5,675 bases of DNA, taken from IMG/VR virus record IMGVR_UViG_2695420514_000021; one strand, given 5' to 3'. A program made the translations under genes and the position numbers. The DNA is from a virus. Lineage: Duplodnaviria > Heunggongvirae > Uroviricota > Caudoviricetes. Below, piece by piece: positions 1 to 5,675 of this stretch. The notes beneath the pieces were generated by a model. It saw only the letters and a list, made by a program, of their open reading frames with translations. It searched no databases and was not told the DNA's origin. The first letter of the stretch is position 1; every line of letters begins with the position of its first letter.

Positions 1-756
1 GAAATTATCAGTAAGATTGGTGCCGATGCTGTGGCATTGCCTGAGAATTTCCGCATTCATGATCTGGAAAAATTTAATTTAAATCGCTTCCGTTTCCGTG
101 GTGCGCTTTCCACTGCCAGCATCGATGACTTTACCCGTTATTCTAAAGATCTTGCAGATGAAGGCACCCGCTGCTTTATCGATGCCGATAATATGCGAGC
201 AGTCAGTGTGCTTAACCTGGGTACTATTGATGAACCAGGTCACGCAGATAACACCGCCACTCTCAAACTGAAAAAGACAGCACCGTTCTCTGCCCTGTTG
301 TCTGTTAACGGCGAGCGTAACTCCCAGAAGTCACTGGCAGAATGGATTGAAGACTGGGCCGACTACCTTGTGGGCTTTGATGCTAATGGTGACGCTATTC
401 AGGCAACAAAAGCGGCTGCGGCGGTCCGTAAAATCACGATTGAAGCAAACCAGACCGCTGATTTTGAAGATAATGACTTCAGCGGCAAACGCTCCCTGAT
501 GGAGTCTGTCGAAGCGAAGACCAAAGACATTATGCCAGTGGCATTTGAATTTAAATGCGTTCCGTTTGAAGGTCTGAAAGAACGTCCATTTAAATTACGC
601 CTCAGCATTATCACTGGCGATCGTCCTGTACTGGTTCTGCGCATTATTCAGCTGGAAGCGGTGCAGGAAGAAATGGCTAACGAATTTCGTGATCTGCTTG
701 TTGAGAAATTTAAAGACAGCAAAGTAGAAACCTTTATTGGTACTTTCACCGCCTGA
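1..756 (+). CDS. yfdQ: YfdQ-like prophage protein (DUF2303 family), 5'-truncated by the window edge
   Basis: The open frame runs in-frame from nt 1 ([17 protein letters not shown]...) to TGA at 754-756, so the GTG at 31 is internal, not the start. The translation matches my recollection of CPS-53 YfdQ, and the gene sits directly upstream of yfdR/yfdS-like genes as in K-12. Confidence 0.8.
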
Positions 757-768
757 TTTCATTACTGC

Positions 769-795
769 AAATGCCCCTGCGGGGGCATTTATGGA
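769..795 (+). terminator. Putative rho-independent terminator or attenuator hairpin after the yfdQ-like gene
   Basis: Perfect inverted repeat AATGCCCC (770-777), loop TGCG, GGGGCATT (782-789), followed by TTAT. The U-tract is short, so it may be a partial terminator or processing site within the operon. Confidence 0.45.
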
Positions 796-883
796 AACAT
801 AATTTACTCAATAATCGCCGGATAGTGAGGGCTTCCTTTTACCAGAATTCAGCGCGGTGCAGCGCATATACGTGGAGAACAAA

Positions 884-1420
884 ATGTCATTTATTAAAAC
901 TTTTTCCGGGAAGCATTTTTATTATGACAGGATAAATAAAGACGACATCGTTATTAACGATATCGCGGTTTCCCTTTCAAATATCTGTCGCTTTGCAGGA
1001 CATCTTTCACACTTCTACAGCGTCGCCCAACATGCGGTGCTTTGCAGCCAGCTGGTACCGCAGGAATTTGCTTTTGAAGCGTTAATGCATGATGCAACAG
1101 AAGCATATTGCCAGGACATCCCCGCACCACTGAAACGCCTTCTTCCTGACTATAAACGGATGGAAGAAAAAATAGACGCCGTAATCCGTGAGAAATACGG
1201 GTTACCTCCTGTTATGAGCACGCCAGTGAAATATGCCGATCTCATTATGCTGGCAACCGAACGCCGCGATCTCGGGCTTGATGATGGCTCTTTCTGGCCT
1301 GTACTGGAAGGTATCCCGGCGACAGAGATGTTCAAAGTTATTCCACTGTCACCAGGCCATGCCTACGGGATGTTTATGGAACGTTTTAACGAGTTATCGG
1401 AGTTACGCAAATGCGCATGA
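884..1420 (+). CDS. yfdR: HD-domain phosphohydrolase (5'-deoxynucleotidase YfdR-like), 178 aa
   Basis: ATG at 884 is preceded by GGAGA at 873-877. The translation has a His...His-Asp signature (GHLSH; MHD at codons 68-70, nt 1085-1093) typical of HD phosphohydrolases. Length and sequence match my recollection of CPS-53 YfdR. The in-frame ATG at 857 lacks a good RBS. Confidence 0.88.
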   Translation: MSFIKTFSGKHFYYDRINKDDIVINDIAVSLSNICRFAGHLSHFYSVAQHAVLCSQLVPQEFAFEALMHDATEAYCQDIPAPLKRLLPDYKRMEEKIDAVIREKYGLPPVMSTPVKYADLIMLATERRDLGLDDGSFWPVLEGIPATEMFKVIPLSPGHAYGMFMERFNELSELRKCA

Positions 1421-1773
1421 ATGTTTTCGAAATGGAAGGGTTTCTTCGCGGGAAATGTGTACCGCGAGATCTGAAAGTGAACGAAACAAATGCTGAGTAC
1501 CTGGTACGTAAATTCGATGCGCTTGAAGCTAAATGTACGGCACTGGAAAACAAAATAATACCAGTGTCAGCTGAACTGCCACCAGCAAATGAAAGTGTTC
1601 TGTTATTTGATGCTAACGGAGAAGGCTGGCTAATTGGCTGGCGTTCTCTCTGGTACACCTGGGGACAAAAAGAAACCGGAGAATGGCAGTGGACATTTCA
1701 GGTCGGGGACCTTGAAAACGTCAATATCACTCACTGGGCAGTAATGCCGAAAGCACCGGAGAATAAGAAATGA
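1411..1773 (+). CDS. yfdS: YfdS-like prophage protein (DUF551-type), 120 aa
   Basis: ATG at 1411 with GGAG at 1399-1402. It overlaps the yfdR stop (TGA 1418-1420), indicating translational coupling. A Trp-rich C-terminus (GWLIGWRSLWYTWGQKETGEWQW) is typical of this family. A start at ATG 1417 is an alternative. Confidence 0.8.
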   Translation: MRMNVFEMEGFLRGKCVPRDLKVNETNAEYLVRKFDALEAKCTALENKIIPVSAELPPANESVLLFDANGEGWLIGWRSLWYTWGQKETGEWQWTFQVGDLENVNITHWAVMPKAPENKK

Positions 1774-1973
1774 GCGTGATAAAAACTCATACAGGAATTG
1801 TTATCACCCGAGACGGTCCGCAGGTAAAAAAACTGCACCAGACAAAGCGGATGTGGGTCGTCGGAAAAAACGAGTTTTACCACAAAGAAACCGGACGCCG
1901 CCACTTTGCAGAAAATACGCGCCGCCGACTGCTGATCGACAGCATCAAGCCTATCGAGGTGAAGCATGTTTAA
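1770..1973 (+). CDS. Small hypothetical phage protein, 67 aa, basic
   Basis: ATG at 1770 overlaps the yfdS stop (ATGA at 1770-1773). GGAGA at 1758-1762 gives RBS spacing of about 7 nt. Coding is supported mainly by the coupled arrangement; no family recognised. Confidence 0.55.
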   Translation: MSVIKTHTGIVITRDGPQVKKLHQTKRMWVVGKNEFYHKETGRRHFAENTRRRLLIDSIKPIEVKHV

Positions 1974-2205
1974 ACAGAACGAAAAATCTATCGCTCAAAT
2001 TGCTGAGTATATCCCGCGTGCGTGCCGGGGTATGCAGTTGCAGGAAGCCAAAGCGCGCCTGGAGAAAAAAATTGCGCTCTATATCGATGACGGCTGTGAT
2101 GCTGCCGTTCTTAACGCAGCGTTCGCGCCAGCTCTTAACAGTCATACGCGGGAGTCTTTTTTTTCGCGCATCGCAGCGCAGATCCGTAAAGGAGGCAACC
2201 AGTGA
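1966..2205 (+). CDS. Small hypothetical phage protein, 79 aa
   Basis: ATG at 1966 overlaps the preceding stop (TAA 1971-1973) and is preceded by GAGGTGAAGC. The gene ends in a GTGA overlap with the next gene. No family recognised. Confidence 0.6.
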   Translation: MFKQNEKSIAQIAEYIPRACRGMQLQEAKARLEKKIALYIDDGCDAAVLNAAFAPALNSHTRESFFSRIAAQIRKGGNQ

Positions 2206-2756
2206 GCGAGATTAACTATCAGGCTCTGCGACTGGCGGCAGAAAATGCAACACCAGGCGAATGGTGTGCTGATGACTACCATGGAGTAATTGCCGATGCC
2301 GGACTGAACGCCAATTACTACATAGCATCATGCTCAGGACCAGATAATCGCGCCAATAAACGATTCATAGCCGCCGCCAATCCTGCCACCGTCTTGGCGC
2401 TGCTGGATGAGCTGGAAGCAGCAGAGAAGCGAAACGCTGAATTACAAAGCGAGAATGCATACATCCGCAACCGGTACAAAGAACTGGACCTATTAATCGG
2501 GAAAAACATTCTGGTCATGCAGGCTGCCATTATCGAATGGCAGGCAACTGGCGACGCTAAGAGCGGACTGGCATGGATTTATAACACACTGTTTGGCCCT
2601 GGCGAATTACCGGACGAATCTGAGAAAGATGCTCAGGCCTACTTTAATCGCAAATATGCACCGATTGACGAAAAGCTTATGGCGCTTCACAAGTGGTTTT
2701 GGGAACAAAGTGAAGCCGAGCGCGCCGCCGCCAACATTGGTGTGAAGGGGAAGTGA
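2202..2756 (+). CDS. Ead/Ea22-like family protein, 184 aa
   Basis: GTG start at 2202 with a strong RBS AAAGGAGG at 2188-2195. The N-terminus (MSEINYQALR..AENATPGEW) and the DNRANKRFIAAANPATVLALLDELEAAEKRNAELQ segment resemble Ead/Ea22-like proteins of lambdoid prophages as I recall them. A central segment looks coiled-coil. Confidence 0.7.
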   Translation: MSEINYQALRLAAENATPGEWCADDYHGVIADAGLNANYYIASCSGPDNRANKRFIAAANPATVLALLDELEAAEKRNAELQSENAYIRNRYKELDLLIGKNILVMQAAIIEWQATGDAKSGLAWIYNTLFGPGELPDESEKDAQAYFNRKYAPIDEKLMALHKWFWEQSEAERAAANIGVKGK

Positions 2757-2757
2757 G

Positions 2758-2949
2758 ATGAACGGACAAATCTCAATTGTTCGACCGGGAGCATGTGACG
2801 ATTGCGAGATACGAATGATTATTCGTCTGGCGAGGGGGAAAACAATAACTGCTCTCATTACTCCTGAAAATCTCGCATTAGCATTAACAGGAAAGTCAGA
2901 CCTGCCAGTAGAGCTAAAGCTGCGAAATATTGAGATTAAAGTGAAATAG
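2758..2949 (+). CDS. Small hypothetical phage protein, 63 aa
   Basis: ATG at 2758 lies 1 nt after the upstream stop (TGA 2754-2756), with GAAGGGGAAG just upstream as RBS. No family recognised. Confidence 0.5.
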   Translation: MNGQISIVRPGACDDCEIRMIIRLARGKTITALITPENLALALTGKSDLPVELKLRNIEIKVK

Positions 2950-2951
2950 TT

Positions 2952-3719
2952 ATGAATACTCTTACCAAAGAATGGTTACAGAACACGATTACCAGCATTG
3001 AGTCAGCACGGGATGAAATACCGTTCGGACTCGATGAAGATCAAAACAACATGCTTACCGCATTAAAAATTGCACTGGCATCACTGGCAGCAGTATCAGA
3101 TGAACGAGCAGCCTATGAATTATTTATGGAGAAGCGTTTCGGGGAATCTGTAGATCGTCGCAGAGCAAAAAATGGCGATTGCGAATACATGGCATGGGAT
3201 ATGGCGCTTGGCTGGATTATCTGGTGTCACCGCACCGCCATGCTTCAGGGTAACCAACCTGTAAGCCAAACTTACAAGTTTCCACAAACGCAGTTTGAAG
3301 AGGTTGCTGACCTCTACGAAATGCAATTTGATGACGGACGCACTTGTGCCTTTCATAGTGATGTGCAAAAGGCTGCACAATGGCTTCAGGCATGCGACGG
3401 AAACAGGGTTCAGGAATACGTGAAGTTGGAACGATTGCAGAACGCGCTGTCTGATAACTCTCCAGTAACTCCGGATGGTTGGGTTATGGTTCCGAAGAAA
3501 CTAACCGCTGAGAACGGCGCTAAAGGTGTGCTATCCGGTGAATTTTCAGAATCTACGTTTATAAGCTGCCCGGAATGTTTTGGCGATGATGATTGCGATA
3601 CCTGTGACGGGAGCGGACGTATTGAAATTAAAGTGCCAGTCACGTGGTCGACCATAAAATCTATCTGGGATAAAGGTATCGAGTATTTTGCAGCAAAACC
3701 ATCACAAGAGGTGAAGTGA
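2952..3719 (+). CDS. Hypothetical phage protein, 255 aa, with a C-terminal DnaJ-type zinc-ribbon-like motif
   Basis: Long ORF with ATG at 2952, 2 nt after the upstream stop. The motif CPECFGDDDCDTCDGSG at nt 3567-3617 contains a CxxCxGxG unit plus a second CxxC. The RBS is weak, so the exact start is uncertain. Confidence 0.75.
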   Translation: MNTLTKEWLQNTITSIESARDEIPFGLDEDQNNMLTALKIALASLAAVSDERAAYELFMEKRFGESVDRRRAKNGDCEYMAWDMALGWIIWCHRTAMLQGNQPVSQTYKFPQTQFEEVADLYEMQFDDGRTCAFHSDVQKAAQWLQACDGNRVQEYVKLERLQNALSDNSPVTPDGWVMVPKKLTAENGAKGVLSGEFSESTFISCPECFGDDDCDTCDGSGRIEIKVPVTWSTIKSIWDKGIEYFAAKPSQEVK

Positions 3720-4291
3720 TGAACAACTTAATGATCGACCTTGAGACGATGGGGAAAAATAAGGATGCACCGATCGTTTCCATTGGCGCGGTGTTCTTCA
3801 CTCCAGAAACCGGAGACATCGGACAAGAATTCTATGCGGTTGTCAGCCTAGACAGTGCTATGAAGCAAGGAGCTACACCTGACGGCGATACCATCCTGTG
3901 GTGGTTGAAACAAAGCCCTGAAGCGCGAGCTGCAATCTGTATTGATGATACTTTGTCGATCAGCGATGCTCTCTCAGAACTAAACCATTTCATTAACCGG
4001 CACGCAGACAATACGAAATATTTAAAAGTCTGGGGTAACGGGGCCACCTTCGACAACGTAATTTTACGTGGAGCTTATGAGCGAGCAGGACAAATCTGCC
4101 CGTGGGCGTACTGGAATGACCACGATGTACGCACGATCGTTACGCTTGGGCGTTCCATCGGATTCGACCCCAAAATGGACATGCCTTTCGATGGCGAACG
4201 GCACAACGCCCTGGCTGATGCCCGTCATCAGGCAAAATATGTTTCCGCTATCTGGCAGAAATTAATTCCTGCCACCAGCACAGAATTATGA
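3719..4291 (+). CDS. Prophage 3'-5' exonuclease of the DEDDh (DnaQ-like) superfamily, 190 aa
   Basis: ATG at 3719 (the GTG at 3716 overlaps the upstream TGA), with GAGGTG at 3706-3711 as RBS. The translation shows Exo I (MIDLETMG), Exo II (WGNGATFDNVIL) and Exo III (HNALADARH, HxxxxD) motifs in the expected order. This small exonuclease is a conserved resident next to xis/int in lambdoid prophages; the truncated ypdJ of K-12 is the equivalent remnant, as far as I recall. Confidence 0.85.
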   Translation: MNNLMIDLETMGKNKDAPIVSIGAVFFTPETGDIGQEFYAVVSLDSAMKQGATPDGDTILWWLKQSPEARAAICIDDTLSISDALSELNHFINRHADNTKYLKVWGNGATFDNVILRGAYERAGQICPWAYWNDHDVRTIVTLGRSIGFDPKMDMPFDGERHNALADARHQAKYVSAIWQKLIPATSTEL

Positions 4292-4327
4292 TTTTCCCGG
4301 GTGCAGCCGGTTTTGATGGAGAAAATT

Positions 4328-4597
4328 ATGAACACCTTGTTTTTACTGATGGCTGAATTCAATACCCCAAACATTGAACTCTCAGCAGTTAGTCAAAAAT
4401 ACTTTGGTATGAGTCCAGCCACAGCAGAAGCAAAAGCAAACGCTTGTAAGTTGCCTGTACCTACATATCGCATCGGTACATCACAAAAAGCAAAACGCTG
4501 CATCAACATTCAGGATCTTGCGGAATATATTGACAAAAGACGGGAAGAAGGGCGAGCTGAGTGGGAAAAAGTCAGAACGGAAAAAAAATATAACTAA
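4328..4597 (+). CDS. Excisionase-like DNA-binding protein (PrtN/AlpA-type), 89 aa
   Basis: ATG at 4328 with GGAG at 4317-4320. The N-terminus MNTLFLLMAEF and the ...SQKAKRCINIQDLAEYIDKRREEG segment resemble the PrtN family as I recall it. It is the last gene of the + strand operon, the canonical xis position. The in-frame ATG at 4301 lacks an RBS. Confidence 0.75.
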   Translation: MNTLFLLMAEFNTPNIELSAVSQKYFGMSPATAEAKANACKLPVPTYRIGTSQKAKRCINIQDLAEYIDKRREEGRAEWEKVRTEKKYN

Positions 4598-4610
4598 ACT
4601 AAAACTATGG

Positions 4611-4642
4611 ATAACCCGTATATGTACGGGTTATTTTTCTTT
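4611..4642. terminator. Rho-independent terminator between convergent genes, probably bidirectional
   Basis: Stem AACCCGTA (4613-4620), loop TATG, TACGGGTT (4625-4632), followed on the + strand by ATTTTTCTTTAT. On the - strand the T-tract is poorer and starts a few nt after the stem. The TAA stop of the - strand gene (4631-4633) lies inside the stem. Confidence 0.7.
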
Positions 4643-5179
4643 ATCACTATCTTTTCTTGATTTGAACAATCCACTAACAACGAAACCAACCAAACCAACA
4701 ATACTAATTGTACTTGTACCTAGTAATGCAACGATCGCTTCAACTGGAGGCTTTCCTTCATGTGCAATAAGAAACGATGTAAACATTGCGACAACGAATA
4801 AGCACCAACACGACATAAACCAAACCGTGAATGATGCCATTTTTGTCCGGAGCTCATTGTCTATTTCTTTACCAGTTGCGTCAGCTATCTTATCCCGTAC
4901 TTGTGATTTGAGCATATCAAGCTGAGCTTGAAGACTGTCCATTCTGTTCTGCTGCATAAACTCATGCAATGCACCAGTATTAGAACCAAACTCTTCTTCC
5001 TCCAGAATAGCCTTATTTTCTGAAGAAGAATCATCATCGCGTTCATGATTAGACGGCTCAAATGCGGATTCAAAAGCCTGCTCTTGACTGTCAGTAGAGT
5101 TTAAGGATGCTTCAGAGCGACCATTTTCAACACCTGCGGCCGCTCCGATCAGTTTATAGATATCTGAATTATGAGACAT
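4631..5179 (-). CDS. Hypothetical membrane protein, 182 aa: acidic Ser/Glu/Asp-rich N-terminal domain plus two predicted C-terminal TM helices; candidate toxin/effector partner of the upstream Panacea-like gene
   Basis: ATG at 5179-5177 (- strand) preceded by AGGGATGAC, stop TAA at 4633-4631. The N-terminal roughly 110 aa are hydrophilic and acidic (ERDDDSSSENKAILEEEEFG) with a likely helical stretch (MDSLQAQLDMLKSQVRDKIADATG). Two hydrophobic stretches follow (FTVWFMSCWCLFVVAMFTSFLIA and AIVALLGTSTISIVGLVGFVVSGLF, about nt 4664-4831). No family recognised. Confidence 0.72.
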   Translation of the reverse strand: MSHNSDIYKLIGAAAGVENGRSEASLNSTDSQEQAFESAFEPSNHERDDDSSSENKAILEEEEFGSNTGALHEFMQQNRMDSLQAQLDMLKSQVRDKIADATGKEIDNELRTKMASFTVWFMSCWCLFVVAMFTSFLIAHEGKPPVEAIVALLGTSTISIVGLVGFVVSGLFKSRKDSDKEK

Positions 5180-5201: not shown

Positions 5202-5675
5202 TCAGAGGCCCTGACATTGCTGTCGGTTATTCAATAAATCATGATAATAAGCCTTGATCGCATCATTTGAGATGATCGACGAGCCAATACCATTATAAGC
5301 TTGTGACCAAGGCGTACCTGGCATATGAGTTAGAGTTGATAACTCAATTCCATTTTTCGAGCCGTAAAACTTATAAACAGCCCCGATAATGCTCTCTGCT
5401 TGCGGATCCATAGTAACGATGCCACCAAAAGGAGCTACTGCTACATTCGTAACAGGTTTATTCCCATAGTCTTTGAAAGCATCGTACATTCCAGGAATAA
5501 CTGGACCGTACTTCCACGCGGAGACACATTCATTGAGCAAAGGCTTACCTGTTAATGCTAAATAGTAACCATGGGCAATATAAGTAAGCTTCTGCAGTTG
5601 CATGTGGGTCAGAGGATTATGATGTTGGTTTCCCAACGTTATGAATTTATTGGCTATTTGTACCGGACTGTACAT
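5202..5675 (-). CDS. Panacea-domain (DUF4065; COG3600/GepA, SocA-like) protein, 157 aa; putative antitoxin or adaptor
   Basis: The ATG is the last three nt of the window (5675-5673, - strand), stop TGA at 5204-5202. The N-terminus MYSPVQIANKFI and the core LQKLTYIAHGYYLALTGKPLLNECVSAWKYGPVIPGMYDAFKDYG (about nt 5484-5600) match the Panacea/DUF4065 pattern as I recall it. The ORF could extend beyond the window edge, since no upstream stop or RBS is visible. Confidence 0.75.
   Translation of the reverse strand: MYSPVQIANKFITLGNQHHNPLTHMQLQKLTYIAHGYYLALTGKPLLNECVSAWKYGPVIPGMYDAFKDYGNKPVTNVAVAPFGGIVTMDPQAESIIGAVYKFYGSKNGIELSTLTHMPGTPWSQAYNGIGSSIISNDAIKAYYHDLLNNRQQCQGL

Follow-up and report, generated by a model that had tools for sequence, protein, structure and literature searches.

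The window analysed here (the whole stretch of 5,675 nt from the Caudoviricetes record IMGVR_UViG_2695420514_000021) carried in its first 1773 nt the genes yfdQ, yfdR and yfdS, which are orthologues of the genes of the same names in CPS-53 (KplE1), a prophage of Escherichia coli K-12. This block is most likely the yfdQRS part of the conserved yfdP-yfdQ-yfdR(-yfdS) module that stands first in the early-left (pL-type) operon of SfV/mEp460/ST64B-like lambdoid phages. The block is genuine but unremarkable, as a very common lambdoid early-gene module that is already on record. Its native role may be the transient inhibition of host replication initiation, a reading given here a probability of about 0.5. 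The features of the block were as follows.

1..756, + strand: yfdQ (DUF2303), its 3' 251 codons; K-12 orthology, Pfam PF10065, PHROG 210.
770..793, + strand: GC-rich hairpin AAATGCCCCTGCGGGGGCATTTAT, recognised from sequence and fold, 14 nt past the yfdQ stop codon in the 127-nt spacer.
884..1420, + strand: yfdR, HD-domain phosphohydrolase (5'-deoxynucleotidase), the DnaA-binding protein of K-12; K-12 orthology, PDB 2gz4, PHROG 318.
1411..1773, + strand: yfdS, coiled-coil-like at its N-terminus and with DUF551 at its C-terminus; K-12 orthology, DUF551, PHROG 583.
1761..1762, no strand: mosaic junction, at which homology to K-12, SfV and many other phages and genomes ends.

A yfdQ-yfdR-yfdS-like cluster at 1-1773 had been proposed in a preliminary description of this DNA, and alignment to K-12 bore this out. 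Positions 1-1761 were 97.5% identical to CPS-53 of strain MG1655 at the DNA level (BLAST), and the three + strand open reading frames (ORFs) encoded products with 97.8-99.2% protein identity to K-12, namely YfdQ (99.2% over 251 aa, residues 24-274 of the K-12 protein), YfdR (97.8% over its entire length of 178 aa) and YfdS (99.1% over 117 of 120 aa, the three C-terminal residues differing). Among the codons that differed from K-12, 30 changes were synonymous and 7 non-synonymous, and the three genes therefore appear to be under purifying selection.

The window opens at codon 24 of the 274 codons of yfdQ, the start codon lying 69 nt further upstream; the full 274-aa gene was seen, with yfdP standing before it, in the 100% identical locus L004 (CP025676.1). 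Beyond its K-12 orthology, YfdQ matched Pfam PF10065 with an E-value of 1.8e-85 (286.9 bits against a cut-off of 26.6), and homologues with 57-76% identity occurred across Enterobacterales. Its sole solved relative by sequence was PDB 9o7m ('YfdQ Protein'; 274 aa, E 1e-44, ~45% identity), an entry with 36 chains on which the literature search found no paper. The assignment of YfdS to DUF551 (PF04448) was marginal by score (22.2 bits against a cut-off of 22) and was accompanied by K-12 orthology. PDB sequence searches with YfdP and YfdS gave no meaningful match.

Ten closely packed ORFs occupied the + strand of the window, and two convergent ORFs came after them on the - strand. The yfdQ, yfdR and yfdS genes lay on the repressor-gene strand, immediately downstream of the repressor gene and yfdP, and the gene order in all copies was repressor, yfdP, yfdQ, yfdR, yfdS and, further on, excisionase, PanT/PanA and the host zur region. 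In the gene map of L004, the series showed the layout of an operon, as it ran on the repressor-gene strand divergently from cro, with tight coupling of the ORFs and the excisionase gene (xis) in last place. From yfdR to xis, five junctions consisted of overlaps of 4-10 nt (10 nt for yfdR and yfdS) and the other three of gaps of 1-9 nt, with overlapping start and stop codons from yfdR onward, so that the 127-nt yfdQ-yfdR spacer was the only sizeable gap of the operon. The promoter scan found fewer promoter-like sites than in shuffled sequence, and no internal promoter was evident in 1-1773.

Within the spacer, the hairpin at 770-793 had a perfect 8-bp GC-rich stem followed by TTTAT, and a terminator is annotated under the matching sequence in the record of phage Ayreon. 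The 141-nt yfdQ-yfdR stretch as a whole folded no better than its shuffles (z -0.84) and contained this one local hairpin, which resembles a weak terminator and may act as a leaky terminator or a processing site. The ATG at 884 was taken as the start of yfdR, as in K-12 and RefSeq; the GTG at 857 given in the ORF list is not used there. The Rfam scan of the whole window (E <= 1) returned just two sub-threshold chance matches. NCBIfam gave no match above cut-off. PADLOC gave no defence-system match for YfdP, YfdQ, YfdR, YfdS or the other ORFs, with the exception of a generic DEDDh match for the exonuclease.

The block was widespread: coverage of 1-1773 reached at least 80% in 2108 of the 5426 complete E. 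coli genomes and also in 45 phage records, among them SfV, SfIV, cdtI, mEp460, Ayreon, 2H10 and many Stx2 phages. In a 2025 paper in Genome Research (PMC12315714), the yfdP/yfdQ/HD-phosphatase trio is described as being found fairly often in lambdoid early-left operons, and two of its three genes as being without known function. The same text judges hidden recombinases unlikely, and an identification of yfdP/yfdQ as unrecognised recombinases was set aside on the ground given there, namely that the trio co-occurs with complete Rec modules. In prophages of Yersinia ruckeri and Klebsiella, yfdP-yfdQ-yfdR directly followed the repressor gene with no yfdS next to them, and their YfdR proteins were 58-64% identical to that of the window; in a Xenorhabdus prophage yfdR was truncated. 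The core shared across genera is yfdP-yfdQ-yfdR and not yfdQRST, and what follows it is freely exchanged mosaic. The yfdP gene accordingly belongs in functional work, with yfdS and yfdT as exchangeable accessories. As a discovery the block carries little weight, its composition, its early-left position and its presence in viable phages all being on record (SfV, mEp460, Stx phages and the 2025 paper); the useful results are corrective, namely that models are available, that K-12 does not appear decayed in this region and that the core is yfdP-Q-R.

The proposed inhibition of host replication initiation draws on the K-12 orthologues (97-99% identical) and on the position in the operon. According to PMC4776307, multicopy yfdQ and yfdR together with yfdS or yfdT inhibited oriC initiation in vivo, extracts oversupplied with YfdQRST inhibited oriC replication in vitro, and purified YfdR bound DnaA, with DnaA Phe46 (domain I) being important for binding. 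The same paper reports no replication phenotype upon deletion of the K-12 genes. The K-12 literature invoked in the preliminary description, on replication inhibition and on YfdR-DnaA binding, was correct by this source. Judging from its position, the module would not be expressed in the lysogen but would be switched on, upon induction or infection, from a repressor-controlled leftward promoter. YfdR would then bind DnaA domain I around Phe46 in competition with DnaB and DiaA and, with YfdQ and YfdS, would reduce initiation at the oriC of the host, comparable to the inhibition of DnaA by lambda P. YfdR also has a weak deoxynucleoside monophosphate (dNMP) phosphatase activity, which might be a separate function, possibly linked to the first.

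For the ancestral phage, a role like that of lambda P was proposed by Noguchi & Katayama (PMC4776307), and the analogy, which is theirs, is functional: in both cases an early phage protein would bind DnaA and inhibit oriC initiation. Lambda P differs in having no homology to the module, in binding DnaA domain III and in being also the helicase loader, whereas YfdR, an HD hydrolase, is reported to bind DnaA with Phe46 of domain I being important. Several points weigh against the proposed role. All functional evidence came from multicopy or over-expression in K-12, and the literature search found no phage-infection experiment on the module. As the Yersinia and Klebsiella versions contained no YfdS, the need for YfdS or YfdT seen in K-12 may not apply generally. 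Position is the only ground for assuming expression from pL and repression in the lysogen.

The replication modules of the window's locus, SfV, mEp460 and 1720a-02 contained one O-like or HTH_36 'replication protein' and no recognisable P/DnaC-type helicase loader, and PMC12315714 makes the same remark on phage LLS. The yfdP-yfdQ-yfdR trio might conceivably be a device that captures host DnaB in phages without a recognised helicase loader, an idea that is given little credence here. In that case, DnaB and DiaA would be displaced by YfdR from domain I of DnaA, so that the helicase would be redirected to the phage origin instead of oriC, and YfdQ would serve as an oligomeric scaffold; the PDB entry of the solved YfdQ homologue contains 36 chains.

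The primary function could instead be the manipulation of nucleotide pools, with YfdR acting as a 5'-dNMP phosphatase that would reshape deoxynucleotide pools in lytic growth and DnaA binding being a side effect of over-expression. RefSeq and PHROGs label YfdR a 5'-deoxynucleotidase or dNMP phosphatase. Residues H50, H69-D70, E73, D78 and D119 corresponded to H33, H68-D69, E72, D77 and D137 of YfbR, the E. coli dCMP phosphohydrolase, so that both proteins share the HD constellation H...HD..E....D...D. H50, H69, D70, E73 and D78 were invariant in all four aligned homologues, D119 was kept in the two full-length ones (Yersinia, Klebsiella), and by this alignment all metal-binding and catalytic residues of the YfbR-type HD 5'-deoxynucleotidase are retained, across genera. 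Multicopy supply also raised hydroxyurea resistance in the K-12 work (PMC4776307), which could reflect a pool effect.

Overall similarity to YfbR was low, with just ~21% identity and scores below the YfbR-like 5'-deoxynucleotidase cut-offs of Pfam (PF12917, 24.2 against 25.9) and NCBIfam (equivalog PRK03826, 19.9 against 122), while the closest solved relative was Atu1052 (PDB 2gz4, E 2e-13). YfdR is by these scores a distant HD relative and not a YfbR equivalog. According to PMC4776307, which cites Zimmerman 2008, its nucleotide affinities are far below those of YfbR and its function 'remains elusive'. Moreover, the destruction of dNMPs looks counter-productive for a replicating phage, and a pool effect leaves unexplained both the requirement for yfdQ plus yfdS or yfdT and the inhibition of oriC replication by extracts in vitro. 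A primary role in nucleotide pools was consequently considered rather unlikely.

Two further functions were weighed and both were thought very improbable. The retention of the block in so many E. coli genomes, often within defective prophages, would suit a cargo expressed from the prophage that protects the lysogen against alkylation or oxidative stress. The genes nevertheless lie in overlapping frames within a presumably repressor-controlled early operon, unlike a moron-like unit, which would have a promoter and a terminator of its own, they occupy the same position in viable phages of several genera, and the phenotypes are weak. Equally, an HD phosphohydrolase in an early-expressed position, encoded with two proteins of unknown function, one of them with a 36-chain homologue structure (9o7m), might serve in counter-defence or superinfection, for example through the breakdown of modified nucleotides or of an immune signal derived from nucleotides. 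The PADLOC result and the literature search gave no support to such a function, and the substrates known so far are dNMPs. Inhibition of host replication initiation was retained as the preferred role.

The remainder of the window, beyond the junction, comprised the following features.

1770..1973, + strand: 67-aa ORF; PHROG 1226 (unknown function), E 2e-42; equals mEp460 gp31.
1966..2205, + strand: 79-aa ORF; PHROG 1344 (unknown function), E 2e-52; equals mEp460 gp30.
2202..2756, + strand: Ead/Ea22-like protein, 184 aa; Pfam PF13935, E 1.6e-19.
2758..2949, + strand: 63-aa ORF; PHROG 1222, E 2.6e-40; equals mEp460 gp28.
2952..3719, + strand: ORF255, a 255-aa mosaic 'EaA-like' product; YfdT block, EaA label in 1720a-02.
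3716..4291, + strand: DEDDh 3'-5' exonuclease (Rv2179c-like); Pfam PF16473, E 1.3e-75; PHROG 255.
4301..4597, + strand: PrtN-type excisionase; Pfam PF11112, E 3.8e-23; PHROG 1300 'excisionase', E 6e-40; start called at 4328 in L004.
4609..4636, no strand: bidirectional terminator-like hairpin, located between the convergent genes for excisionase and PanT.
4631..5179, - strand: PanT-like toxin candidate, 182 aa, with a hydrophobic C-terminus; coding sequence of the same size and position labelled 'PanT toxin' in PhiR47_1.
5202..5675, - strand: PanA antitoxin (Panacea domain), 157 aa; Pfam PF13274 SocA_Panacea, E 5.9e-18; PanA label in PhiR47_1.

Pfam and PHROG matches were obtained for the Ea22-like, exonuclease and xis genes alike, in agreement with the fuller early gene set described beforehand. 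From this set it had been suggested that the window belongs to a less decayed relative of CPS-53. On that reading the window shows the ancestral context, and decay removed from K-12 the genes for the 67-aa and 79-aa products, Ea22, the exonuclease and others. Part of this stood, in that identity was high, the early-left operon looked complete and copies occurred in viable phages. The decay of K-12 in this region did not, since the K-12 stretch is collinear with that of a functional phage. The K-12 genes yfdP-yfdQ-yfdR-yfdS-yfdT (8586-11235 of the K-12 locus, L001) were collinear with, and 96.8% identical to, orf32-orf28 of SfV, a viable serotype-converting phage in which xis-int directly follow orf28; YfdT and SfV Orf28 shared 97 of 101 residues. 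Because SfV has the same arrangement, the short K-12 order is a normal phage state and not debris, and K-12 yfdPQRST is, by this collinearity, a complete SfV-type left arm and not a decayed fragment. The extra downstream genes of the window are for the same reason no sign of K-12 decay, although CPS-53 is decayed elsewhere, where the replication and lysis genes and most of the structural genes are gone.

Some observations did fit a loss in K-12. K-12 is without those genes, and YfdT aligned just to the central part and the extreme C-terminus of ORF255, a pattern resembling an internal deletion: YfdT residues 30-90 matched ORF255 residues 37-97 (a 61-aa block with 72% identity, E 2e-30), and a second, faint match consisted of the common C-terminal ...SQ(Q/E)EVK. 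In addition, K-12 ypdJ (L001 11095-11235) was in frame with the first 141 nt of an SfV-type xis ORF (6985-7134 of the SfV locus, L013), and the K-12/SfV homology stopped exactly at the ypdJ stop codon. By its appearance, ypdJ is what is left, beside torI, of an excisionase gene that was replaced. The viable SfV arrangement yfdP-Q-R-S-T-xis-int largely refutes the loss all the same. Moreover, PhiR47_1 presented a third variant, in which yfdS was directly followed by a 269-aa Ea22 and then the exonuclease, the region past 1761 is a zone of mosaic exchange, and the integration modules differed (TorI or SfV-type xis at argW as against PrtN-type xis at dusA). The decay of K-12 from an ancestor resembling the window was consequently regarded as improbable.

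The preferred explanation of the difference is modular exchange. The junction at 1761/1762 lay 12 nt before the yfdS stop codon, YfdS ending in NKK in the window and in AGA in K-12, and by its alignment pattern 1761 is a typical lambdoid mosaic junction and recurrent breakpoint with an exchange zone beyond. Up to this point the window resembled CPS-53 in its orthologous yfdQ/R/S, in their spacing and overlaps, and in the yfdP gene placed before them (in L004). Beyond yfdS, K-12 continued with yfdT-ypdJ-torI at argW, whereas the window continued with the 67-aa, 79-aa, Ea22-like, 63-aa, ORF255, exonuclease and PrtN-type xis genes and PanTA at the dusA/zur region. As the K-12 version is collinear with viable SfV, the longer version of the window is read as an alternative mosaic module; the window and K-12 have two such modules joined at 1761, with the window being the mEp460-type variant and no undecayed ancestor.

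Comparison with individual phages placed the window within known variation, essentially the same segment being also present in the viable phages 1720a-02, mEp460, PhiR47_1 and phiSTEC1575-Stx2k. The closest phage record was the Stx phage 1720a-02 (KF030445), which was 98.3% identical over 93% of the window and also had the PanT-sized gene; it is an Stx2 phage marked in the laboratory with cat and aph, and small differences were found at 2757-2950 and in the ORF255 region. Phage mEp460 (NC_019716), whose genome is deposited as complete and encodes a dusA-type (Rci-like) integrase, had in gp35-gp25 the identical order from yfdP to the PrtN-type excisionase, with 96.9% identity over the aligned 73% of the window. 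It differed in its ORF255 counterpart, a 250-aa DUF551 protein, and in its xis-int cargo of two hypothetical genes instead of PanT/PanA. In SfV orf32-orf28, the genes yfdP, Q, R and S were ~97% identical and likewise followed cI, but the variant was the short one of the K-12 type, with yfdT (orf28) and then directly xis-int-gtrABV. The window had also been put forward as a better model for the native role of the cluster, a suggestion overtaken by SfV, SfIV, mEp460, cdtI, Ayreon and many Stx phages, which already carry the block. Study of the native role of YfdQRS therefore has no need of this prophage, with SfV or mEp460 available as models.

The preliminary description had left open whether the 67-aa or the 79-aa ORF corresponds to yfdT. 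Neither resembled any K-12 CPS-53 protein, and both are additional genes. No full-length orthologue of YfdT (K-12 b2363 / SfV Orf28) was found after yfdS in the window, its only counterpart being the block within ORF255. The latter is, by alignment, a chimera whose N-terminal third is common to YfdT/SfV Orf28 and DUF551-type proteins and whose C-terminal half is unrelated. The C-terminal half contained a DnaJ-like cysteine motif, CxxC...CxxCxGxG (CPECFGDDDCDTCDGSG), and matched no Pfam family. The exact 255-aa product was present in 104 blocks of the collection, while in E. coli ESBL 15 the same ORF255 is labelled by PGAP as a truncated DUF551 pseudogene.

An exact-protein look-up showed that all 5675 bases were 100% identical in three assemblies (L004, L007 and L010), in which the prophage adjoined the dusA/zur region; in E. 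coli relatives a dusA fragment marked the attachment site. The host flank zur-lexA-plsB of L004 was just ~90% identical to E. coli, and a 26-mer from this flank occurred in 1 of 185,579 species-representative genomes, that of the Escherichia albertii type strain, whereas L007 and L010 had E. coli-type flanks. Because the window was identical while the host flanks were just ~90% identical, its presence in two species (E. albertii and E. coli) implies a very recent between-species transfer of the prophage or of this arm. In L004, an intact immunity, replication and nin-like region filled the ~7 kb upstream of the window, comprising the repressor, cro, CP76, O-like replication, PerC, Dam, RusA, KilA-N and DUF968 genes. 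In the 20 kb viewed of a 98.8% identical relative in E. coli ESBL 15, the genes for head, terminase and lysis were intact, and the copy in strain GF4 was degraded, with IS150 and truncated tape-measure and lysozyme genes.

Among the remaining genes of the window, the 67-aa ORF began with an ATG overlapping the yfdS stop codon (ATGA). Several phage records call the gene at 3716-4291 'exodeoxyribonuclease VIII'. This label was rejected, the product being an Rv2179c-like DEDDh enzyme (PF16473) unrelated to RecE. The palindromic hairpin at 4609-4636 had a 12-pair stem on the + strand and a 10-pair stem on the - strand, with a T-run after each. The PanT-like candidate at 4631-5179 had no Pfam or PADLOC match. 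The pair showed the PanAT arrangement, with the Panacea-domain antitoxin gene upstream and the adjacent 182-aa ORF 22 nt downstream, and PanT/PanA is by this arrangement a putative toxin-antitoxin cargo between the excisionase gene and the attachment site. At the same spot, mEp460 and ESBL 15 carried other cargo.

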